Of a stretch of DNA of 35,429 bases, positions 1-35,429 are shown piece after piece. The stretch comes from a virus. Lineage: Duplodnaviria > Heunggongvirae > Uroviricota > Caudoviricetes. A program made the translations under genes and the position numbers. Under the pieces are notes generated by a model that was not told the origin of the DNA, ran no database searches, and worked only from the letters and a program-made list of their open reading frames with translations. The stretch lies in the IMG/VR virus record IMGVR_UViG_2531839330_000011. One strand, given 5' to 3'. Numbering within the stretch: position 1 is the stretch's first letter; each line of letters starts with the position of its first letter.

Positions 1-1002
1 TTACCCTCTATTGTCAAAAGGGTTCAATTCAACAGCAGCCTCTAAATGACCTGGAGCAAAATGCGCATAACGCATAGTCATTTTTATATCGCTATGCCCC
101 AGTATTTTTTGCAACACAAGAATATTTCCGCCCCGCATCATAAAATGACTGGCAAACGTGTGACGTAGCACATGAGTTAATTGCCCATCAGGAAGCTCGA
201 TCTTCGCTCTCTTAATTGCAGCGTCAAAAGCCTCATAACATGGTGAAAATAGCGCTCCTCGTTTTTTGGGAAGCATAGCCTGCAATTGAGGTGAAATCGG
301 TACAGTGCGGTTCTTCTTTCCTTTAGTTTTAACAAATGTGATTCGACCGGGCAGTACTTGAGATTGCTTTAATCCTTCTGCTTCACTCCACCGAGCACCA
401 GTCGCAAGCCCAATACGGACAACAACCCCCAAATCTTTATTCCGTGACTCATCACACGCAATCAGAAGGCGTTCAATCTCATCTACATACAGAAACGCCA
501 GTTCCTTTTCTTCCTCACGAAACTTGCGAATACCAGTCAGGGGGTTTTCACCAGACCACTCCCCAAGGCGCTTCAGTTCGGCAAAAACAGCATGTAGATA
601 TGACTGCTCGCGATTAACGGTTGCTTCACTAAGTTTTTTCTTCCCCTTGGGATTCCACTCTCCTGATAACCTTCTTTCCCGATAAGTGGCAAACATATTT
701 TTGTCAAACTGAGAAGCAAATGGATCTCCCAGCCTGGAACAAATCGCCTCAAGTTTGACTTTGCGCTCTGCACCAGAGGACAAGGTTTTACCGTACATCT
801 CAAACCAACGAGCAATCAACTCAGAAAGACGAGGACCAGAACCATCTTGAAACTCGTCTCCAACTCTACTATTCATTAAACGGCGCTCATAAGAGAGCGC
901 CTCACTTTTTGTCGCAAACTGTTTACGAATGCGTTTTCCCGATGCCCCGTAGGGATAACATTCGCAAAGCCATTTACCTGATGGAATCTTACGAACCGAC
1001 AT
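1..1002 (-). CDS. int: Phage integrase, tyrosine recombinase (P2 Int-like), 333 aa
   Basis: C-terminal catalytic region with conserved R...HxxR...Y pattern (LRHTFASH...MTMRYAHF) and size match P2-type integrases. Start codon at 1002, stop at window position 1. Confidence 0.93.
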   Translation of the reverse strand: MSVRKIPSGKWLCECYPYGASGKRIRKQFATKSEALSYERRLMNSRVGDEFQDGSGPRLSELIARWFEMYGKTLSSGAERKVKLEAICSRLGDPFASQFDKNMFATYRERRLSGEWNPKGKKKLSEATVNREQSYLHAVFAELKRLGEWSGENPLTGIRKFREEEKELAFLYVDEIERLLIACDESRNKDLGVVVRIGLATGARWSEAEGLKQSQVLPGRITFVKTKGKKNRTVPISPQLQAMLPKKRGALFSPCYEAFDAAIKRAKIELPDGQLTHVLRHTFASHFMMRGGNILVLQKILGHSDIKMTMRYAHFAPGHLEAAVELNPFDNRG

Positions 1003-5289: not shown

Positions 5290-5600
5290 ATGCACACACA
5301 AAAAAACCGCTTGCCATGCCTCAATCGGTCAGGTTACATTTCCGCTGCAGCTCATAAAACGGGTGCCGGGATTCTCAACCCGATACAGAGCAAAGCGCAT
5401 AACCGCGCAAGCGGTTTTTTTGTGCGTACTGTATTGCCACGTCTTTTTCGCGTCAGAATTATGGCGGGGCGTACGGGGCCGACTTCGGTCGGGCCGGATT
5501 CTTTGCTCTCCGGTGTTGAGAACCCTGTACGTCTCGCCACCCCGAGATTCTCAACTCTGGATGGTGAGTTATTTCTATCACCGAGCAAAGAGGCCACACC
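5290..5600 (+). other. Highly structured non-coding segment (candidate ncRNA or terminator/regulatory element)
   Basis: 15-bp perfect inverted repeat AAAAAAACCGCTTGC (5300..5314) / GCAAGCGGTTTTTTT (5407..5421). Local hairpin CCGC-GCAA-GCGG followed by T7. Hairpin GGCCGAC-TTCG-GTCGGGCC near 5478..5497. Repeated ATTCTCAAC motifs at about 5380 and 5548 with an inverted copy near 5514. ORFs called across this interval lack protein-like composition. Confidence 0.35.
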
Positions 5601-5831
5601 ATGGCAGACCGCAAACAGCACCGCACTATCGCGGAGCGTCGTCACATCCAGACTGAAATCAACCACAGACTTTCCCGCGCATCACGCGTCGCGCAAATCA
5701 TGCACATCAATATGCTGCATGAGCGCAGCCACGCACTATCAAACATTTATTCCGCCTCTGTTTTCAGCTATCTGGCGGATGATCTGCACGAGCTTCAACA
5801 GCTCATCCAGCAGCAAAACAAACTCCATTAA
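5601..5831 (+). CDS. Hypothetical small basic protein
   Basis: 76-aa ORF with AGAGG RBS 8 nt upstream. Confidence 0.5.
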   Translation: MADRKQHRTIAERRHIQTEINHRLSRASRVAQIMHINMLHERSHALSNIYSASVFSYLADDLHELQQLIQQQNKLH

Positions 5832-5903
5832 TTCCTGTTCCGGGCCTTTCCTGCACCTTGCGGCGGGAGGCCTTCGCACATCTGTAACAAGAGGATTGCC
5901 GCA

Positions 5904-6269
5904 ATGATTCTCGCCAACGACTTTCTTGAATACCTGCTCAACACAGAGCGTGATCTTGCCGCTCGCGTACGTGATCGTTATGACATGTATCTGAAATCCC
6001 TGCCTGTACCGCAGCTCGCTGACGGAAAAATTGTTATTGATGGTCGCTACATGATTGACAGCCACGAGGGGAATTACAGGCTTTACCGCATTGAAGCCGG
6101 CACCCCGTCCGTTATTGGCATTTACCAGCGCCCATCCTCTGCGATCGTCGATGTGATTGCCGACAGCATCCGCATCACACACCACCATGCCGACACAGAA
6201 GACACTGTGCTGGAGATTCAGCGGCTGGCTGCCGTTTGCCGTGACACTCTGAACGGAATGACGAAGTAA
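5904..6269 (+). CDS. Hypothetical protein immediately upstream of replication gene A
   Basis: 121-aa ORF. Sits at the position P2 gene B occupies, but no similarity recognised. Confidence 0.5.
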   Translation: MILANDFLEYLLNTERDLAARVRDRYDMYLKSLPVPQLADGKIVIDGRYMIDSHEGNYRLYRIEAGTPSVIGIYQRPSSAIVDVIADSIRITHHHADTEDTVLEIQRLAAVCRDTLNGMTK

Positions 6270-6275
6270 ATCAGT

Positions 6276-9098
6276 ATGACGACAGAGTACATCAGGGACT
6301 GGCAACAACCGCGCCACGCAGTAGGACGTGAAGGAACGGAGATCCCCGCACCTGAATCCGCACTTTCCTCCTGGCTGGATGCCTACCGGGCAGAGAACGA
6401 ACGCCGCCAGGAAATGGCTGATGCGGCGTTCTCCGCCACACCGCTGGGCAACCTGATTAATAAAAGCCTGGACGCACAGGAAAAACAGGACAAAACCATC
6501 ACACTGGCCAGAGAAGCCAGAAAACAGGCACGCGGCGCGGTGGATGAAGCCATGGCCTCGCTGCGCCTGCTGCCATCCTATCTGCGCGATCCGCTTATTC
6601 GCCACCTCTCCTTCCTGCGCAAAAAACAGGAATCTGACCGCCAGAAAGGTAAAAAGAACCAGCAGGCTGAACGCTACGCGCGCGGGACCCTGCGCAAAAT
6701 ATTCGAACGTCTGGACCGCACCGACCACCGCTGGCTGACACCGGGTTATCGCTCCCTTGCCGGACGCGAACGCCTGGATGATTTGCTTTACCTCCCGCAG
6801 CTCAACAAGCACCAGATACAGACGCTGGCCACCATGACGGCGGCGATGTTCAGCAGCACCTTCGAAAAACTCTGCGATGGCTTTGGCGCGACCGATGGCG
6901 AGCTGACCATGGATGTAACGCTGAAGGCGTATCAGATGCTGGCCCGCATGGCGTTACACCTGCACATCATGCCTCCACATTATGACGCACTGACAACAGA
7001 TAAAGACCGGAGGAACGAACCGGACACGGAGCTGCTGCCGGGCGCAATCCTTCGCCTGACCTGTGCGGAATGGTGGAAACGCAAACTGTGGCTGTTACGT
7101 TGCGAGTGGAGAGAAGAACAACTCCGCGCCGCCTGTCTGGTTTCCAGAAAAACATCGCCTTATCTGAGCCAGGACGCGTTAAGCGAGTTTCGCGCACAGC
7201 GCGAGAAAACACGCGATTTCCTGAAAAGTTTCATGCTGGAAAATGAAGACGGGTTCACGATTGATCTCGAGACAGTGTATTACGCGGGAGTAAGTAACCC
7301 GGTTCACCGTAAGGCAGAAATGATGGCCACCATGAAGGGGCTGGAACTTCTGGCCGAAGCCCGTGGCGACAAAGCGGTGTTTCTGACTGTCACCTGCCCG
7401 TCAAAATACCACGCCACAACAGAGAACGGTCATCCGAATCCCAGATGGAACGGGGCCACCATGCGCGACTCCAGCGATTACCTGGTTAACACGTTTTTTG
7501 CGGCGGTCCGCAAAAAACTGAACCGCGACGGTCTTCGCTGGTATGGCATCCGCACGGGGGAGCCTCACCATGACGGCACCGTGCACTGGCATATGATGGT
7601 CTTTGCACATCCGGACGAGATTGAAACCATCGTGTCCCACGTCTGCGATATTGCCATTCAGGAAGACCGCCACGAGCTGGGCGATGACATAACTCCGCGT
7701 TTTAAGGCGGAGTACGTCGACGGCTCAAAAGGCACACCAACCAGCTACATCGCCACCTACATCGGAAAGAACCTGGACAGCCGCGCCGTGGATGGCATCG
7801 ACCCGAAAACGGGCAAGCCACGCGTTGACCACGAAACCGGAAAATTAATGGCCGAGAGCGTGGAACGCGCCATCGGCTGGGCGCGCCTTCACCGGGTCCG
7901 CCAGTTCCAGTTCTTTGGTATCCCCTCCCGTCAGGTGTGGCGTGAACTGCGCCGCCTTGCCAGCCAGATGGCACGCAACCCGGAAGGCCCACAACGGCTG
8001 AAAGATGACGCAATGGACGCGGTACTCGCTGCCGCTGATGCCGGATGTTTTGCCACCTACATTGAAAAACAGGGTGGCGTGCTTGTTCCACGCAAGGACT
8101 ACCTGATTCGCACCGCCTACGACCTCGCAGATGAGCTGAACGATTACGGCGAACAGAGCGTACAGATTTACGGGATCTGGTCACCACTCATCGGGGAATC
8201 CTCCCGTGTGTGCACGCATCCGGATAACTGGAAGCTGGTAAGACGCAAACCGGAAGCGGAAGACAGCGCCCGCGAAAATGGTTTTGACCTTCAGGGCGGC
8301 CCTGCCGCCCCTTGGACTCGTGGCAATAACTGTCCCCGTGTACAGGAAACGAACAACAACGGGACAGAACAGCCGGAAGAACGGCCAGCACCGTGGCCGC
8401 AGCTCCCTGATGGCGTTGAAGTGAACGAATGGATGCGCTCACTGAAACGGCACGAACGCCGGGCGCTGATGCGTTCGCTTCGTGACAAACAGGCAAAAAA
8501 CAGCAGTGATGAAATGCAGAGCTGGACACAGAGCCGCAAACAGCAGCGGCCTTTGCCTGATAACCACGAATTACTCGCTAAAGAATGGCGGGAATCTGCC
8601 GAATCTCTCGGCCTGCATATCGGTGAACAGCAGATGCAGCACCTGTTACGGGGCGGCAGCCTGTACGTTGACGGCAGCATCATTGCACCGCAGGGATTTG
8701 AAATTGTACGCAAACCGGATCCCAGCCCGGACAGCCGAATCACGCAGCTCTGGCAGCGCCTGAGCCGTAATCACGGCGTAAGCAGCACAGAGATCCGCCA
8801 TAACCCGGTCGCCAGCTATCTGGAACAACTGGGGGCATCAGACCCCGAAGCCGCCGCACGTCTGGCATCCACACTTCAGCAGGACCAGAACACCATGAAA
8901 ACCCCCGTTACCGTGCTTTCTGACATGCTGCGCGCCATCCGTGACGCAGAGCACGCACAGAGAATCAGTGAAACCACTGAACGCGCCCACCGCAAAGCAG
9001 ACCTGCTGCGGGGTAGCCTGACCAATGGAAACAAAAAACAGACAGAAACGGGACTCACAAATCCCGTAAATGAGCAAAAAACGCGCCGCGATATATGA
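6276..9098 (+). CDS. A: Rolling-circle replication initiator endonuclease (P2 gpA family), 940 aa
   Basis: HUH motif (GTVHWHMMVF) followed by a paired-tyrosine motif (TSYIATYIGKN), typical of P2 A / phiX174 A superfamily relaxases. Synteny after the early operon. Longer than P2 gpA as I recall it. Confidence 0.88.
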   Translation: MTTEYIRDWQQPRHAVGREGTEIPAPESALSSWLDAYRAENERRQEMADAAFSATPLGNLINKSLDAQEKQDKTITLAREARKQARGAVDEAMASLRLLPSYLRDPLIRHLSFLRKKQESDRQKGKKNQQAERYARGTLRKIFERLDRTDHRWLTPGYRSLAGRERLDDLLYLPQLNKHQIQTLATMTAAMFSSTFEKLCDGFGATDGELTMDVTLKAYQMLARMALHLHIMPPHYDALTTDKDRRNEPDTELLPGAILRLTCAEWWKRKLWLLRCEWREEQLRAACLVSRKTSPYLSQDALSEFRAQREKTRDFLKSFMLENEDGFTIDLETVYYAGVSNPVHRKAEMMATMKGLELLAEARGDKAVFLTVTCPSKYHATTENGHPNPRWNGATMRDSSDYLVNTFFAAVRKKLNRDGLRWYGIRTGEPHHDGTVHWHMMVFAHPDEIETIVSHVCDIAIQEDRHELGDDITPRFKAEYVDGSKGTPTSYIATYIGKNLDSRAVDGIDPKTGKPRVDHETGKLMAESVERAIGWARLHRVRQFQFFGIPSRQVWRELRRLASQMARNPEGPQRLKDDAMDAVLAAADAGCFATYIEKQGGVLVPRKDYLIRTAYDLADELNDYGEQSVQIYGIWSPLIGESSRVCTHPDNWKLVRRKPEAEDSARENGFDLQGGPAAPWTRGNNCPRVQETNNNGTEQPEERPAPWPQLPDGVEVNEWMRSLKRHERRALMRSLRDKQAKNSSDEMQSWTQSRKQQRPLPDNHELLAKEWRESAESLGLHIGEQQMQHLLRGGSLYVDGSIIAPQGFEIVRKPDPSPDSRITQLWQRLSRNHGVSSTEIRHNPVASYLEQLGASDPEAAARLASTLQQDQNTMKTPVTVLSDMLRAIRDAEHAQRISETTERAHRKADLLRGSLTNGNKKQTETGLTNPVNEQKTRRDI

Positions 9099-9140
9099 AG
9101 CGCGCACAAAACAGGCAAAAGCGGGATTTAAAAATCCTGT
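9049..9140 (+). repeat. Two copies of a roughly 20-bp hairpin-containing motif (ACGGGACTCACAAATCCCGT at 9049..9068; GCGGGATTTAAAAATCCTGT at 9121..9140) spanning the A stop and the parM-like upstream region
   Basis: Read directly from the sequence. Each copy has an internal inverted repeat. Spacing is 72 bp. Confidence 0.4.
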
Positions 9141-9174
9141 AACCGATTAATTAATCAACATAAGGAAAAGCTAC

Positions 9175-10134
9175 ATGAAAATTTGTATCGACGACGGCTC
9201 CACCAACATCAAGCTGGCATGGACTGAGAACGGCGAACGCCGCAACGCCATCAGCCCGAACAGCTTCAAGTCGGAATGGTCTGCGCCGTTCGGTGGCACG
9301 CAGCCCGCGAACTACATGCTTGATGGCGTGCGCTATGGTTTTGATCCGGTCAGCGATCGCTTTGTCCAGACGACCGACACGCAATACCAGTACAGCGATG
9401 TGAATGTAATCGCCATTCACCACGCGCTGGTCAAATCAGGCATCACACCACAGGAAGTGGATGTGGTTGTCACCCTGCCACTGAGCGAATATTTCGACAC
9501 AAACGCACAGCCGGACATGGCCAACATCAACCGCAAAAAAGCGAACGTCATGCGCCCGGTGGAGTACCAGAACGGCGAAGCATTCACTATCCGTAACGTA
9601 CGGGTTATGCCTGAATCCATTCCGGCTGGCTTTAAGGCACTGGCTGACATGAGTCCGTTTGAATCCCTGCTGATTGTGGATTTGGGCGGAACCACGCTGG
9701 ATGTGGCAAAGGTTCAGGGGCAACTGGCAGGTATCAGCCAGGTGTTTTGCGATCCACACGTAGGCGTTTCTCTTATGGCAGATGCCGTACTGTCGGTGAT
9801 GGCCACTAACGGTATGCGCACCAGTCACCACATCGCCAATACCATTATCGAACATCGCCATAATGAAGCATGGCTGCGCCAGCACATCCACAATGACGCG
9901 CATTACGCCAGCCTGATGGCGGTTATTCGTGAAAAGGAAGAAACACTGAAACAACGCGTGATCCGCGCGCTGGCGGTTTTTTCGGGTTACGGGCGGGTGA
10001 TGGTTGTCGGTGGCGGGGCGGAGATTGTGGCACCCGCTATCCGCGAAGCCTGCGGAGTTAATGCGACTTTCATCGCGGACGGGGTGCCACAGTTTGCTCT
10101 GGTTAATGGGCTGTACGCAATGGACAAGGAGTAA
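9175..10134 (+). CDS. parM: ParM/StbA-like actin-type ATPase (type II plasmid partition motor homologue), 319 aa
   Basis: Extensive collinear similarity to plasmid R1 ParM as recalled: IDDGSTNIKL, ISPNSFK, QYSDVNV-A-HHAL, NINRKKAN, VMPESIPAG, DLGGTTLD, GGGAE, LVNG. AAGGA RBS before the ATG at 9175. Confidence 0.85.
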   Translation: MKICIDDGSTNIKLAWTENGERRNAISPNSFKSEWSAPFGGTQPANYMLDGVRYGFDPVSDRFVQTTDTQYQYSDVNVIAIHHALVKSGITPQEVDVVVTLPLSEYFDTNAQPDMANINRKKANVMRPVEYQNGEAFTIRNVRVMPESIPAGFKALADMSPFESLLIVDLGGTTLDVAKVQGQLAGISQVFCDPHVGVSLMADAVLSVMATNGMRTSHHIANTIIEHRHNEAWLRQHIHNDAHYASLMAVIREKEETLKQRVIRALAVFSGYGRVMVVGGGAEIVAPAIREACGVNATFIADGVPQFALVNGLYAMDKE

Positions 10135-10138
10135 ACCA

Positions 10139-10450
10139 ATGACGACACCAACCAGACGGATAAGTTTCTATCTGAAGCCCGCCGCCGTCAAGAACGAAGG
10201 AGAAGCATGCGCCTGGCTGGACAGCCTTACACCAGAAGCCCGCAAAAGCGGCCAACGCGTGGCTTTTCTGGCCGGGCTGGCACTTCTGAAGACGAATCCG
10301 GCAGAGGCTTACCGACTGGCCGCATGGGCTGATGATGAGATGTTACCTGTGACACAAATCAGCTCAAAAAAGTTTGAAGCACAGTCTGCACCAGTGGCTA
10401 AGATAACCAGCCAGATGGCTGGGAATATCCGGGCGTTATTTCCTGAGTAA
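10139..10450 (+). CDS. parR: ParR-like small DNA-binding adaptor (candidate partition centromere-binding protein), 103 aa
   Basis: ATG at 10139 is 4 nt after the parM-like stop, with AGGAG RBS. N-terminal region (RRISFYLKPAAV...RVAFLAGLALLK) resembles the R1 ParR N-terminus. Gene order parM then parR matches R1. Longer ORF 10004..10450 trimmed to the internal start. Confidence 0.6.
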   Translation: MTTPTRRISFYLKPAAVKNEGEACAWLDSLTPEARKSGQRVAFLAGLALLKTNPAEAYRLAAWADDEMLPVTQISSKKFEAQSAPVAKITSQMAGNIRALFPE

Positions 10451-10578
10451 AAGCATCTGCGCGAAAAATGCTCACGTTTATAGAGACAGTATCATTCCAT
10501 CTGGCACACTTACTTCAATAATCGATCTGTTAAACAAATAGATTGTCTATTATCTATCGATTAAAACGATCAATTATC

Positions 10579-10606
10579 TTGACAGTAATGTGCCTTTTTG
10601 TAAGAT
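10579..10606 (+). promoter_or_regulatory. Candidate sigma70 promoter (TTGACA-16 nt-TAAGAT) with a GATC overlapping the -10 hexamer; two further GATC sites and an ATAGA-TTG-TCTAT palindrome (10538..10550) just upstream
   Basis: Read directly: TTGACA at 10579..10584, TAAGAT at 10601..10606, GATC at 10524, 10568 and 10604. Confidence 0.4.
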
Positions 10607-10657
10607 CGTTCGCATTGTGAGCGACAAGATAATTGCGCGGCATTGTCCATGCAAAAC

Positions 10658-10800
10658 GCCCCAATAGCAGCAACTATTGGGGCGTAAAACTCGGTCGGAC
10701 TCACTTAACCTGATATGCGTGCCTTCCGAAGTAAATCAAAATGTGCGTCGTATATTTTATTGCTTACACGCACCTCTGTAAAGGCACGCATATTTTTCCT
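10658..10800 (+). other. Structured leader upstream of the 89-aa ORF: hairpin CCCCAATAG/CTATTGGGG (10659..10682) and a 13-bp perfect inverted repeat ATATGCGTGCCTT (10713..10725) / AAGGCACGCATAT (10781..10793) enclosing a nested GTGCGT/ACGCAC hairpin, followed by ATTTTTCC
   Basis: Read directly from the sequence. The second arm ends immediately before the RBS of the downstream ORF, giving an attenuator-like layout. A 22-codon ORF (ATG 10741, MCVVYFIAYTHLCKGTHIFPMR) lies inside the structure. Confidence 0.35.
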
Positions 10801-10814
10801 ATGAGGTAAATAAA

Positions 10815-11084
10815 GTGCGGGCTAAAACAGGTATTTGCAAGAACCCTCATCGTTATAATCCAACATTTCTGTCTCTCCCTGAATATCAAGGACAAGAAGG
10901 TCGGCACAAATGCGCTGCCTGTGCTTTTGAGCTAGGCATAAAAGATGCGCTTGAAGGACGCGCTATGGCTCAGAATGATTTAGTTTTAGCTAACATTCCG
11001 TTTAGCCAGGCTGGAACTGTAAGGCACAGAGATGCCTATGAAGCATATGTTCGTGGTTGGCGATTAATAAACAGCAACAATTGA
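10815..11084 (+). CDS. Hypothetical 89-aa Cys/His-containing protein, stand-alone transcription unit in the A-to-Q accessory locus
   Basis: GTG start at 10815 with GAGG RBS. Own candidate promoter upstream and a strong intrinsic terminator directly downstream. Spaced Cys/His residues (C8, H12, H31, C33, C36, C37) hint at a small metal-binding fold. No family recognised. Confidence 0.55.
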   Translation: MRAKTGICKNPHRYNPTFLSLPEYQGQEGRHKCAACAFELGIKDALEGRAMAQNDLVLANIPFSQAGTVRHRDAYEAYVRGWRLINSNN

Positions 11085-11093
11085 TACTTTTGA

Positions 11094-11117
11094 AGCGCCG
11101 ATAAGGCGCTTTTTTTG
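11094..11117 (+). terminator. Rho-independent terminator (GCGCC-GATAA-GGCGC followed by T7)
   Basis: GC-rich hairpin plus T-run, 10 nt after the stop of the 89-aa ORF. Confidence 0.8.
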
Positions 11118-11570: not shown

Positions 11571-12617
11571 TCAGGATGTGGGCTGGGTGTCTAACAGTGC
11601 GTAAGGGTTAAAGCGGATCACCTCTTCGCCAAGCCAGTCATTGATGTGCTTCATGGCCTCCATGACGGGCATCAGCTCGTTAATTGCGTAAACCCGCGCG
11701 GCCTTCTCCACATCACCAAACGCACTTTTTTCGCCCGGCATCGCCCCCATCAGTTGCGGCGGAACGCGGTGCGCAGCCAGCACATCATCACGGGATGCCG
11801 CCTTAACATTCATGAACTCATCCTTTGCGGTGATCTGCTGGAACGGCAAAATTTGCACCCCTTCTTTGCCCCCGTTGGGCGCATGAATGAGCACGTTTTT
11901 AAATGCACCACCACCACGCGCACCCTGTAACGTTTCTTTCAGGGAGTCCATGCTTTCGCGGTTTACCTGCGCTGCACCGATGTAGATGATGCACCCGGCG
12001 TGGGATCCGTTGTCGTAGTACAGTTTTCTGAACATGTCCGCCGAATGAGAAAGGCTGGCCGAGAGTAATGCGCCAAGATATTCCGGCATGCCGTAGATTT
12101 CCTGGTTAATATCCGGATTCATCAGGTGGCACACTTTGCCAGGGCGAAACTGGAACGCGTCCTTGCCATCCTGCACATACCACCATGATTCAAGATCGCT
12201 TCCGCGTCGCATGTATTTCGCCAGGGCGTGCCGTAATTTAAGCGGTTCGCCGAGCATATTGCTCCGAAGCTCAAGGAATGCGTTACCGAACACAAACCAG
12301 TCCAGCGCCAGCGCCGAGAAATCCTGCCGGGAAAGCAGCGGGTGCGGGATGTAGCACCCGAGCAATACATTACGCTTAAAGTAAAGCGCAGACTGATGCC
12401 AGGACGTTTGCCGGGCGGCTCTTGCCAGACCGTACCAGTCCACCGGGGTTTCATACCACCGCCCGTTATCAGCACAGTACATATTGTCCAGCAGGTCATG
12501 CCCGGTCAGGCGATAAGGACCATCAAATGTGAATGCACTGAGCGATGATTCTTTCCTGAGCGCATCAGCGAGATCAATGCGTGAACTCATGCGCACTTTT
12601 TTATTTTTTCTGCTCAT
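11571..12617 (-). CDS. Q: Portal protein (P2 gpQ-like), 348 aa
   Basis: Size and position match P2 Q (leftward Q-P operon). Start ATG overlaps the P stop (ATGA). Confidence 0.88.
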   Translation of the reverse strand: MSRKNKKVRMSSRIDLADALRKESSLSAFTFDGPYRLTGHDLLDNMYCADNGRWYETPVDWYGLARAARQTSWHQSALYFKRNVLLGCYIPHPLLSRQDFSALALDWFVFGNAFLELRSNMLGEPLKLRHALAKYMRRGSDLESWWYVQDGKDAFQFRPGKVCHLMNPDINQEIYGMPEYLGALLSASLSHSADMFRKLYYDNGSHAGCIIYIGAAQVNRESMDSLKETLQGARGGGAFKNVLIHAPNGGKEGVQILPFQQITAKDEFMNVKAASRDDVLAAHRVPPQLMGAMPGEKSAFGDVEKAARVYAINELMPVMEAMKHINDWLGEEVIRFNPYALLDTQPTS

Positions 12618-14368
12618 CAGAACTCCATAACCGTAAAACGCTCGTTTTCCCCTTCGCCGCCAATCGGTTCGTTAATGACAGCAAGCATGGTTGCCCACGC
12701 AAGGTCGCCGTGGCTGATCCCCCTCGCACGGTCCGTTTCGTAAGTGATAAAGCCGCCCGGTGTTTTCACCTTACGCACGGCGTTAAAGGCTGCGACCAGC
12801 TCGCGTTCGGCGCGATCATATTCCCACCGCCCGGCACGCATTATTTGCAGCATTTTCAGTACCAGCGACCGTTTTGATGACAGCGTGAAGGTGTACGGAA
12901 TAGCAGCAGGGAAAAACCGTTTCACTATCTGATAAACAGCCTCCCCGTTCCCGCCCGTCACATCAATGCCGATGTGTTCCACGTTGTAGCGACACGTGAA
13001 CTCTTCAATGACTCTGGCCTGTTCTTCAAACTCCAGCCCCTGAACGCGTCGCGTCTCCACCGTTCGAAAACGGCCTCCAGGAACAGCCGGAGGAACCACC
13101 ACGGACACAGCGCCGCTGTCGCCGTTTCCACTGCTGCCGTTTGCGTCATACCCAATCCATACCGGACGATTCCCCATCGGGCGGGGAGCAAAAGGTTTCC
13201 AGTCTTTCCAGTCGTCGTATCCGTCAACACCGCAGCCAATCAGGATATTCAGGTTAAATGCCGATTCCCCTTCGCGGACAAACTCACACATATAGAGATT
13301 GCGGAACTCGTCTTCGGTGTTTTCATCACGAATTTCGTCAATATCGGTGTGTTTCCAGCCGTGATTAACCACATCTTCCAGCGTGACAATTTGCCGCCAC
13401 GTCCGGTCAGGGCAGATAAGCCCGTTATGCAGCGTTTTCCAGTCCACAGAAAAACGCTGGCGTTTATGCGTGGCCTTTTTCTCGTTCCAGCGGTCGCCAT
13501 TCCAGTAGGCGTATGCCTCGTGCGTTTCGGTGGATGGCGTGGAGAAGTAGGTGCGCCGCAGTCCGCTGAGGGTTGCCATAGCGCCAGCCACCTTGCGCAG
13601 TTCAGCAAAGCGACTGACCCAGAAAAATTCATCAAAATAAAAATTGCCCGTGTAGGACTGTGCCGTCGCAGCAGAAGTACCAAGAAAATGCAGCTCTGCG
13701 CCGTTGGAGAGGATGATTTTATCGCCCCCTTTCAGCTCCACATCAACTTCAGCCGCAGCCTTCTGAATAATGCTTTTAAACTGGAACGCCTGACGACGCG
13801 ACGCAGACAAAAAAATCTGGTTACGCTGGTAAGGTTGTGCCACATCGTCACGCAGCGCCATCAGCAGTGCTTCCTGTGCAAAATACCAGGTCGCCCCAAT
13901 CTGTCGGGATTTCAGGATCATCCTGTTACGTATCCCGGCTTCCCTGCAAAGGGTCAGGGAGTCAAACCAGCCCCGCTGATGCCACTCCAGCCTGCTGATG
14001 ATTTTTTCCCGCAGTGCGGCAATCTGTTCCGGCGTGAAATGATTTTTGAGTTTTTTCGCCCGGCCTTTCTTTCCTGCGGCCATCACATCCGGCTGGCCAT
14101 CATGCAGCTTTTTAAGCTGCCGGGTCAGCAGGTCTATTTCCTTGAAGTCACCACCTGTTTTATTCTGTTTTTCAGTAAGCTGGATGAGGCGCGCATCGAT
14201 GGACTGCGTGACACGCTGCACGGGTGGCGTTTCATCCCACTGGTCGCGTTTTTTCCACGCATAAATCGTGTTCGGGTTTATTCCCATCAGACGTGATATT
14301 TCTGCGGGCGGATACCCCTGCCAGTAAAGTTGCCGCGCACGCTGGCGCACAAAAGCGTCCTGAATCAT
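12617..14368 (-). CDS. P: Terminase large subunit, ATPase (P2 gpP-like), 583 aa
   Basis: Size and position match P2 P, divergent from O. A Walker A-like motif is not explicitly resolved; the call rests on synteny and length. Confidence 0.85.
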   Translation of the reverse strand: MIQDAFVRQRARQLYWQGYPPAEISRLMGINPNTIYAWKKRDQWDETPPVQRVTQSIDARLIQLTEKQNKTGGDFKEIDLLTRQLKKLHDGQPDVMAAGKKGRAKKLKNHFTPEQIAALREKIISRLEWHQRGWFDSLTLCREAGIRNRMILKSRQIGATWYFAQEALLMALRDDVAQPYQRNQIFLSASRRQAFQFKSIIQKAAAEVDVELKGGDKIILSNGAELHFLGTSAATAQSYTGNFYFDEFFWVSRFAELRKVAGAMATLSGLRRTYFSTPSTETHEAYAYWNGDRWNEKKATHKRQRFSVDWKTLHNGLICPDRTWRQIVTLEDVVNHGWKHTDIDEIRDENTEDEFRNLYMCEFVREGESAFNLNILIGCGVDGYDDWKDWKPFAPRPMGNRPVWIGYDANGSSGNGDSGAVSVVVPPAVPGGRFRTVETRRVQGLEFEEQARVIEEFTCRYNVEHIGIDVTGGNGEAVYQIVKRFFPAAIPYTFTLSSKRSLVLKMLQIMRAGRWEYDRAERELVAAFNAVRKVKTPGGFITYETDRARGISHGDLAWATMLAVINEPIGGEGENERFTVMEF

Positions 14369-34426: not shown

Positions 34427-34513
34427 TGGTACCCGGAGCGGGACTTGAACCCGCACAGCGCGAACGCCGAGGGATTTTAAATCCCTTGTGTCTACCGATT
34501 CCACCATCCGGGC
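34427..34513 (-). tRNA. leuZ: tRNA-Leu (anticodon UAA)
   Basis: Reverse complement GCCCGGATGGTGGAATCGGTAGACACAAGGGATTTAAAATCCCTCGGCG...GGGTACCA matches E. coli leuZ as recalled, with long variable arm and encoded CCA. Confidence 0.93.
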
Positions 34514-34525
34514 TCGGGAAGAAAG

Positions 34526-34599
34526 TGGAGGCGCGTTCCGGAGTCGAACCGGACTAGACGGATTTGCAATCCGCTACATAACCGCTTTGTTAACGCGCC
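34526..34599 (-). tRNA. cysT: tRNA-Cys (anticodon GCA)
   Basis: Reverse complement GGCGCGTTAACAAAGCGGTTATGTAGCGGATTGCAAATCCGTCTAGTCCGGTTCGACTCCGGAACGCGCCTCCA matches E. coli cysT as recalled. Confidence 0.93.
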
Positions 34600-34653
34600 A
34601 AATTCTTCAGGCCTTTCAGCCAGACATCCGCTTGAGGCCGATGTCTTTTAAAC

Positions 34654-34729
<76 letters not shown>

Positions 34730-34880: not shown

Positions 34881-35429
34881 TCACTGATCAAGCAAATCTG
34901 CACGCGCAGCGCTCAAATATTGCAACATTGACCACAGAGTCAGTACCGCAGCCACAAAGAAAAGTGCAATACCGGCGTACTCAACCCAAATGTTCGGACG
35001 CCACAGCAGCCAGGCCAACGCCACCATCTGGGCAGTGGTTTTCACTTTCCCAATCCAGGAGACAGCCACGCTACTGCGTTTACCCAACTCCGCCATCCAT
35101 TCGCGTAGCGCAGAAATAATAATTTCACGGGCGATCATCGTTGCCGCCGGTAAGGTCACCCACCAGCTGTGATAATGCTCGGTTACCAGCACCATGGCGA
35201 TAGCCACGAGAACTTTATCTGCGACAGGGTCAAGGAAAGCACCAAACCGGGTACTCTGGTTCCAGCGGCGTGCCAGAAAACCATCGAACCAGTCAGTCAC
35301 CGCCGCGACGCAGAAAATGAGCGCGGCGGCAAACGGCGACCAGGTGACAGGCAGATAAAAGACCAATACAAAGAATGGGATAAGGATGACACGGAACAGT
35401 GTAAGCAACGTAGGGATATTAAATTGCAT
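34881..35429 (-). CDS. pgsA: CDP-diacylglycerol--glycerol-3-phosphate 3-phosphatidyltransferase (host housekeeping gene)
   Basis: 182-aa multi-TM protein with the CDP-alcohol phosphotransferase motif ([10 protein letters not shown]...[10 protein letters not shown]). Gene order pgsA-glyW-cysT-leuZ is the E. coli arrangement. Start codon at the last bases of the window. Confidence 0.9.

Follow-up and report, generated by a model that had tools for sequence, protein, structure and literature searches.

The parM and parR genes found at positions 9175 to 10450 of the viral record IMGVR_UViG_2531839330_000011, a stretch of 35,429 nucleotides which is referred to here as the window, are proposed with modest confidence to constitute a functional type II (ParMRC-type) segregation cassette, located in the replication/early module of an integrated phage and acting on the extrachromosomal circular form of its genome. 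By nucleotide identity, the element is a P2-type prophage of Escherichia coli belonging to the P88 group (genus Xuanwuvirus, Peduoviridae), and the cassette directly follows its homolog of P2 gene A.

The product of parM (positions 9175 to 10134, plus strand; 319 amino acids [aa]) is an actin-like segregation ATPase composed of the Pfam domains StbA_N (residues 1 to 157; E value, 1.8e-82) and ParM C-terminal domain (residues 159 to 316; E value, 3e-68). It aligns end to end with the crystal structures of the ParM protein of plasmid R1 (1mwk; E value, 4e-92) and displays approximately 52% identity in tblastn comparisons to plasmid ParM proteins, including that of R1. The ATPase motifs DDGSTNIK, MPESIPAG, DLGGTTLD, and GGGAE are intact, and their residues are invariant across 13 diverse homologs, so that the phosphate-1, connect, phosphate-2, and adenosine motifs by which the actin-fold ATPase of a type II partition system is recognized are all present. 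An earlier note on this DNA had described a 319-aa ParM/StbA homolog, a ParR-like small protein 4 nucleotides (nt) downstream of it, and the gene order of the R1 parMR system; each of these observations is borne out, the pair being genuine and intact, with candidate ParR sites upstream.

Between the stop codon of parM (TAA; positions 10132 to 10134) and the ATG start codon of parR at position 10139 lie the 4 nt ACCA, and the ribosome-binding site of parR, AAGGAG, overlaps the 3′ end of parM. The encoded ParR protein (positions 10139 to 10450, plus strand; 103 aa) is a ribbon-helix-helix adaptor of the StbB family which matches PF10784 (Plasmid_stab_B; E value, 9.8e-24) and, over its full length, PHROG 2515 (“partition protein”), thus representing the small adaptor encoded directly 3′ of parM in type II partition systems. 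When a profile of phage ParR proteins was employed, the best PDB match was ParR/StbB of plasmid pB171 (2jd3; E value, 0.004; residues 9 to 74). The protein comprises a DNA-binding N-domain (residues ~1 to 66), a hypervariable linker (residues ~67 to 90), and a conserved C-terminal motif, NI(R/Q)xLFPE, the more general form of which, (K/R)xN(A/I)xxLFPx, is retained in all phage ParR proteins and aligns with the C termini of the ParR proteins of the IncK plasmid pB15 and the phage-plasmid D6. In the published structure of R1 ParM with a ParR peptide, this C-terminal region is reportedly the part which binds ParM. The possibility that ParR, at 103 aa, represents a truncated protein devoid of the ParM-binding helix was rejected, as comparison to longer phage and plasmid ParR proteins revealed that the motif is present and that only the linker is shorter. 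An AlphaFold monomer model of ParR, generated from an alignment of 20 sequences, is of low confidence (mean predicted local distance difference test score, 55) and conveys the helix pattern only.

The parM gene is under strong purifying selection, with pairwise ratios of nonsynonymous to synonymous substitution rates (dN/dS) of 0.01 to 0.17 and an open reading frame (ORF) which is intact in all 87 sampled copies. The suggestion that the protein might be catalytically dead or conserved merely as a fragment, which would have spoken against a partition function, is contradicted by these values and by the intact motifs. The parR gene evolves faster (dN/dS, 0.32 to 0.52), with changes concentrated in the linker, and 37 distinct ParR sequences, including at least six unrelated linker versions, were encountered among 81 loci. 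Two types of ParR N-domain, approximately 55% identical to one another, coexist, with ParM remaining 97 to 100% identical and the upstream palindromes (described below) unchanged. Residues 1 to 13 of ParR are nearly invariant (one sequence differs at residues 2 and 3 and another at residue 2), and the C-terminal motif is likewise conserved. Such a pattern of variation is that expected of a DNA-binding domain which is connected by a floppy tether to a partner-binding peptide; the hypervariability of the linker probably reflects an unconstrained tether in combination with recombination, although diversifying selection may also have contributed.

A search for direct and inverted repeats identified a candidate parC (centromere/operator) region immediately upstream of parM, at positions 9032 to 9142, which is formed by two 38-nt direct repeat units (positions 9032 to 9069 and 9105 to 9142; 79% identity), each of which harbors one 20-bp palindrome. 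Site 1 (positions 9048 to 9067; ACGGGACTCACAAATCCCGT) lies within the 3′ end of gene A, while the center of site 2 (positions 9121 to 9140; GCGGGATTTAAAAATCCTGT) is located 73 bp from that of site 1. The repeats which the earlier note had listed at positions 9049 to 9140 as candidate ParR-binding iterons are thereby substantiated as a 38-nt direct repeat with embedded palindromes. The motif CGGGAYT-N4-AATCCYG occurs just at these two positions in the 35-kb window and was not found in the remaining 960 kb of sequence examined, the two palindromes of the sibling loci being situated at positions −125 and −52 relative to the parM ATG, with the 73-bp spacing retained in 54 of 57. The most common form of the site is a perfect palindrome, ACGGGATT-N4-AATCCCGT, of which the arms are invariant and the 4-bp center is variable. 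E. coli phages which encode the second ParR type possess the same palindromes and the same 15 to 16 N-terminal ParR residues, a segment in which the beta-strand that reads the DNA in ribbon-helix-helix proteins would be located, and the region from position 9032 to 9142 is considered, from its sequence, a good candidate for the DNA to which ParR binds. A two-site layout with a spacing of 72 bp and its own lineage-specific sequence is also apparent in a Plesiomonas phage (ParM 62% identical); a similar layout (approximately 72 bp) was discerned in a Hafnia phage by eye only, the repeat finder not having reported it, and the Serratia and Enterobacter phages exhibit a long inverted repeat upstream of parM instead of paired palindromes. 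Where AT-rich repeats had previously been pointed out downstream of parR (positions 10520 to 10610), an inverted repeat does exist, at positions 10518 to 10577. It lies outside the conserved module, in a variable segment absent from many siblings, and was rejected as a second centromere.

The rightward early gene block closes with the gene A homolog (positions 6276 to 9098, plus strand), whose 940-aa product, gpA, is the rolling-circle replication endonuclease (Phage_GPA; E value, 3.3e-129), and which is located directly 5′ of parM on the same strand. ParM homologs with 54 to 62% identity were encountered in five cases, all of them in P2-like prophages (two in Hafnia and one each in Plesiomonas, Serratia, and Enterobacter), and in all five the order is gpA, parM, a PF10784-type parR, variable genes, and portal. 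The interval between gpA and parM contains one extra ORF in Hafnia and two in Enterobacter, and none in the E. coli, Plesiomonas, and Serratia prophages. In these phages of other genera, ParM is better conserved than gpA (29 to 55% identity), the portal (31 to 47%), or the large terminase (36 to 44%). As the same gene order is retained in such divergent prophages, the cassette is taken to belong to a conserved replication module which is linked to gpA. A mosaic prophage of Escherichia albertii NBRC 107761 (L003; NZ_BBMY01000003.1), in which gpA and ParM are 97% and 100% identical, respectively, to their counterparts in the window, with a portal and terminase that are only 30% and 36% identical, appears to have arisen through a recombination event which joined the early/replication module, with parMR in it, to another structural module.

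The interval between gpA and gpQ of P2-like phages is a published defense hotspot (PMC9122126), and the variability observed downstream of parR matches it. The similarity of many sibling phages to the window stops exactly at the parR stop codon, at position 10450, with variation beginning at position 10451, and the slot which follows parR in siblings is occupied by IetAS, an AbiL-like pair, toxin-antitoxin pairs, or one of many unknown genes. The parMR genes do not behave as cargo of this hotspot, being invariant, adjoining gpA, and lacking a PADLOC match, and in the compared genomes the hotspot begins only after parR. A PADLOC scan of ParM, ParR, and the product of the downstream 89-aa ORF returned no match, and identification of the cassette as a known defense system was, thus, not supported. 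The earlier assignment of the module to the P2 accessory position is accordingly upheld in one respect, as the genes are situated after gene A, and not in another, as they do not resemble tin- or old-like cargo and persist unchanged in position even where gpA, portal, and terminase are only 29 to 55% identical. In L020, L030, and other siblings, the cargo encountered in this slot comprises an IetA/IetS pair (PADLOC E values, 3.6e-89 and 6.6e-41), an AbiL-like ATPase with a Toprim partner, Phd/Doc-like and HigBA-like pairs, and several membrane or unknown proteins without a PADLOC match.

The origin of the cassette is less readily traced. ParM homologs of 52% identity or less occur in plasmid or integrative and conjugative element (ICE)-like contexts, and a neighbor-joining tree of ParM did not separate the phage proteins cleanly into a clade of their own: the E. 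coli/Plesiomonas/Hafnia and Serratia/Enterobacter groups are positioned beside a group of IncK-type plasmids, with the joint clade recovered in 134 of 200 bootstraps. Owing to this placement of two phage groups beside the plasmid group, a single acquisition is not established. When ParR was compared by tblastn to 72,556 plasmids, only copies in P88-like prophages were retrieved and no ParR of a true plasmid, and no close plasmid donor can consequently be named.

All genes from approximately position 2980 to position 11084 are located on the plus strand. Between the stop codon of gene A (position 9098) and parM (position 9175), a consensus scan revealed neither a sigma-70 consensus promoter nor a plus-strand terminator comparable to the first strong terminator-like hairpin 3′ of gene A, which is located at positions 11092 to 11112 (plus strand) and consists of an 8-bp stem with 5 GC pairs and a T-run. 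Rightward early transcription, which would take in parMR, is presumed to end at this hairpin. As parMR follow gene A without an intervening terminator or an evident promoter of their own, they are probably read with the early operon and would, in that case, be expressed together with the early genes, i.e., upon infection or induction.

Because the phage is normally integrated and its parMR genes stand behind gene A in this manner, the cassette most likely acts on the extrachromosomal circle only. It is proposed that ParR dimers attach to the paired palindromes which precede parM (positions 9048 to 9067 and 9121 to 9140), that the conserved C-terminal peptide of ParR then captures the ends of ATP-dependent ParM filaments, and that these filaments push or position DNA which bears the palindromes. 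In P2, replication driven by gpA yields monomeric circles, which are the packaging substrate. Expressed with the early genes, the cassette would operate on the circular phage genome alone, following infection or excision/induction, where it might separate or position the monomeric circles generated by gpA-dependent rolling-circle replication and, at cell division, prevent the loss of a copy which has been excised or has yet to be integrated. By analogy with characterized systems, the role is, therefore, most likely the movement or segregation of the phage circle after infection or induction rather than permanent plasmid maintenance. That P88 is a plaque-forming, inducible phage (PMC5285337) is consistent with this proposal.

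Several points weigh against a segregation function. The candidate parC contains two sites only, far fewer than characterized parC regions, that of R1 being composed of ten iterons and more copies being visible in pB15 and D6, the plasmid relatives, so that the region from position 9032 to 9142 may be only an autoregulatory operator. A weak, ParR-regulated promoter which is active in lysogens could escape the promoter scan applied here, which was a crude consensus match. In addition, the P2 life cycle can be completed without the cassette, as P2, 186, and the majority of the other P2-like phages do not carry it, and a lytic phage which replicates to a high copy number does not obviously need to segregate its DNA actively. 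A search of the accessible literature retrieved no functional study of ParM in P2-like phages, the only mentions being at the level of annotation, together with one sentence by Rousset et al. (PMC9122126). A more far-reaching version of the proposal, which we hold to be somewhat less likely than not, is that ParMRC belongs to the core of the replication module in a lineage of integrative P2-like phages which crosses genus boundaries, serving as a phage “spindle” which spaces or moves the monomeric circles arising from gpA-dependent replication or, at cell division, rescues genomes that have been excised or have yet to integrate. Were this the case, removal of the cassette would measurably lower burst size, lysogenization, or prophage stability, and these phages would provide a genetically tractable E. 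coli model in which to study how a cytoskeleton positions the small genome of a temperate phage.

Both the cassette and the main hypothesis are already in print. Rousset et al. reported in 2022, in a single sentence, that approximately one-quarter of E. coli P2-like phages possess a putative partition system which might allow maintenance as a plasmid (PMC9122126); the paper describing phiSM lists a ParR-like gene as a “fitness” factor; PGAP assigns the names “plasmid segregation protein ParM” and “plasmid partitioning/stability family protein” and PHROGs the label “partition protein” to both; and the GenBank record of D6 carries the remark “similar to phage P88 StbA protein.” The present analysis adds the backbone status of the genes and their linkage to gpA across genera, the strong selection, the paired-palindrome site, and a distribution which argues against a stable plasmid lifestyle.

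The hypothesis of Rousset et al., which is also the first alternative raised in the earlier note, would make the P88-type phages facultative phage-plasmids, persisting for many generations as low-copy circles whose inheritance is secured by ParMRC, a reading to which the close homology of the cassette to a bona fide plasmid stabilizer lends some weight but which the distribution and gene content of these phages render unlikely. Of 5426 complete E. coli genomes, 1303 carry parM, 1279 of them with 80% of the gene or more, and 1441 of its 1443 copies are chromosomal, the remaining 2 being located on plasmids. Matches in the plasmid collection are prophages within replicons of 228 kb to 1.4 Mb or fragments, with one exception, NZ_CP148288.1 (L001), a circular record of 34,461 bp which contains a whole P88-like genome, integrase included, and is the only phage-sized circular record found. 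The deposit describes it as plasmid pZ1323PEC0009-2, obtained from a feline isolate of E. coli; several of its genes are seemingly frameshifted (the portal aligns over 185 aa only), and the quality of the assembly is doubtful. While this record could be taken to favor the plasmid lifestyle, spontaneous induction in culture explains it equally well. The records named Escherichia phage 520873 and 503458 likewise had the look of episomes, but at least 520873, which was inspected, is a prophage excerpt with a flanking host gene. The element in the window encodes a tyrosine integrase at its left end (positions 1 to 1002, minus strand) and is bordered on the right by host DNA comprising three tRNA genes (positions 34430 to 34729, minus strand) and pgsA, which specifies a CDP-alcohol phosphatidyltransferase (positions 34881 to 35429, minus strand); it is, therefore, integrated in the chromosome, as the earlier note had maintained. 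The integrase, the host flanks, and the chromosomal location of nearly all copies set these phages apart from phage-plasmids, which are extrachromosomal and carry plasmid replication functions. In the window, gpA is the sole recognizable replication gene and no theta-type plasmid replicon was seen, on which grounds a permanent plasmid state is not believed to be the norm. The stable episomal persistence envisaged in the earlier note is, thus, unsupported by the distribution, which leaves room for a transient or facultative state.

A second alternative, that the filament system has been co-opted for a role other than segregation, such as interference with related ParMRC plasmids or phage-plasmids (through incompatibility or exclusion) or an anti-phage function, is regarded as improbable. 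The proximity of the gpA-gpQ hotspot (PMC9122126), with its IetAS and AbiL-like cargo in siblings, might be read in favor of a defensive role; however, the cassette is invariant whereas hotspot cargo turns over, and no PADLOC match was obtained. Similarly, the hypervariable linker and the coexistence of two N-domain types in the population could be viewed as favoring a co-opted role, but the variability of the linker also fits an unconstrained, disordered tether. The plasmid ParM proteins closest to that of the phage are encoded by IncK/I-type plasmids which share the E. coli host, yet the failure of tblastn to retrieve a ParR from any true plasmid suggests a separate specificity, and all elements expected of a segregation machine, including cis sites on the phage's own DNA, have been kept. 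Least credible of all, and in our view barely worth entertaining, is that the cassette is a functionless plasmid fragment which was gained by recombination and is carried passively. The absence of the cassette from P2 and 186, the limitation of ParM matches among phage records to the P88 group and D6, and the restriction to approximately one-quarter of E. coli P2-like phages reported by Rousset et al. are compatible with such hitchhiking, but a passenger would be expected neither to maintain intact, strongly selected parM genes, nor to hold its position across genera in which core phage proteins are down to 30 to 50% identity, nor to conserve cis sites with invariant arms. We therefore retain the proposal of a segregation cassette which acts on the transient phage circle.

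On the figures given above, approximately one-quarter of complete E. coli genomes carry an actin-type segregation cassette in a chromosomally integrated phage. Annotation pipelines and classifiers of plasmids or phage-plasmids should not count “ParM/ParR” at these loci as evidence of a plasmid, and surveys of the gpA-gpQ defense hotspot should class parMR as backbone rather than cargo. If the cassette does act on the excised or incoming circle, the principle exemplified by the SXT/R391 ICEs and the prophage CGP3, namely, that integrative elements need plasmid-like partition during a brief extrachromosomal phase, would extend to a common group of enterobacterial phages.

Beyond the cassette, positions 10451 to 11112 represent the variable cargo of the phage in the window and contain, in addition to the AT-rich inverted repeat mentioned above, a promoter-like site (TTGACA-16-TAAGAT) at positions 10579 to 10606 and a 13-bp perfect inverted repeat (positions 10713 to 10725 and 10781 to 10793). 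A perfect 12-bp hairpin at positions 10656 to 10685 reads as a minus-strand terminator 3′ of a minus-strand promoter-like site (positions 10782 to 10754), and these two features could together specify a predicted small RNA of approximately 90 nt. The ORF at positions 10815 to 11084 encodes the aforementioned 89-aa protein, a member of PHROG 3941 (function unknown). The portal and terminase genes follow on the minus strand (positions 11571 to 14368), with the rest of the P2-like virion module beyond. Within or beside an early ORF at positions 5290 to 5907 (205 aa; no Pfam match), Rfam gathering-level matches were obtained on the plus strand to isrK (positions 5347 to 5421; 59.5 bits) and the C4 antisense RNA (positions 5457 to 5544; 78.5 bits), which correspond to an antisense-RNA control element of the P1/P7 type that is usually accompanied by an antirepressor and is here located inside a P2-like early operon. 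The site of integration can be placed in the yecA/tRNA/pgsA region, as yecA forms the other flank in the related record NC_049344. A P88-like prophage (ParM 98% and portal 100% identical to those of the E. coli phage) was also present in a 226-kb contig labeled as that of a Gram-positive bacterium, Vagococcus sp. WN89Y (L004; NZ_JBQPOM010000071.1), most likely owing to contamination or a mislabeled assembly.

Among the characterized systems closest to the phage cassette are the ParMRC (StbA/StbB/parC) loci of R1/NR1 and pB171, which share with it the order of cis site (a candidate site in the phage), parM, and parR. The identity between R1 ParM and phage ParM extends over their full length and encompasses all nucleotide-binding motifs, and the ParR proteins of R1 and pB171 belong to the same family, PF10784, that of pB171 providing the closest structure (2jd3) and the C-terminal motif of the ParM-binding type being conserved. 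The phage ParR is, however, too diverged from plasmid ParR proteins for detection by tblastn; the R1-type centromere is an array of direct iterons, whereas the phage candidate consists of two palindromes separated by 73 bp and is without a visible consensus promoter; and R1-type systems reside on low-copy theta plasmids, unlike the cassette of this integrative, rolling-circle phage. StbA/StbB of the P1-like phage-plasmid D6 provide a phage-borne precedent, in which a ParM with 47.5% identity is likewise followed by a PF10784-type ParR, but D6, being a genuine plasmid prophage equipped with replication functions of the plasmid type, is an element in which a partition system is to be expected. 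The view expressed in the earlier note that type II partition systems belong to plasmids and phage-plasmids does not hold, as two integrative elements carry actin-type systems: CGP3 with AlpAC (PMC4446434) and the SXT/R391 ICEs with SrpMRC (PMC4489591). AlpAC/alpS of the integrated Corynebacterium glutamicum prophage CGP3 is induced early upon excision, links circular phage DNA to filaments (PMC4446434, PMC5539076), and is needed for efficient replication of the phage DNA (PMC4446434). It shares with the present cassette a prophage-encoded, actin-like filament protein and a DNA-binding adaptor whose sites (candidate sites in the case of the P88-like phage) are located upstream of the operon, but it differs in being carried by an unrelated phage of a Gram-positive host, in the distant relationship of AlpC, which is not an R1-type ParM, and in the adaptor gene being placed first. 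SrpMRC stabilizes the transient, rolling-circle-replicating excised form of the SXT/R391 ICEs and is expressed only with the excision/replication program (PMC4489591). Although its carrier is an ICE rather than a phage, SrpM bears only a remote relationship to R1 ParM, and SrpR lacks a recognizable ParR domain, SrpMRC is, in a similar manner to the phage cassette, an actin-type partition system conserved across a whole family of normally integrated elements; its function is experimentally established, and the corresponding role which we propose for parMR of the P88-like phages is read from sequence.

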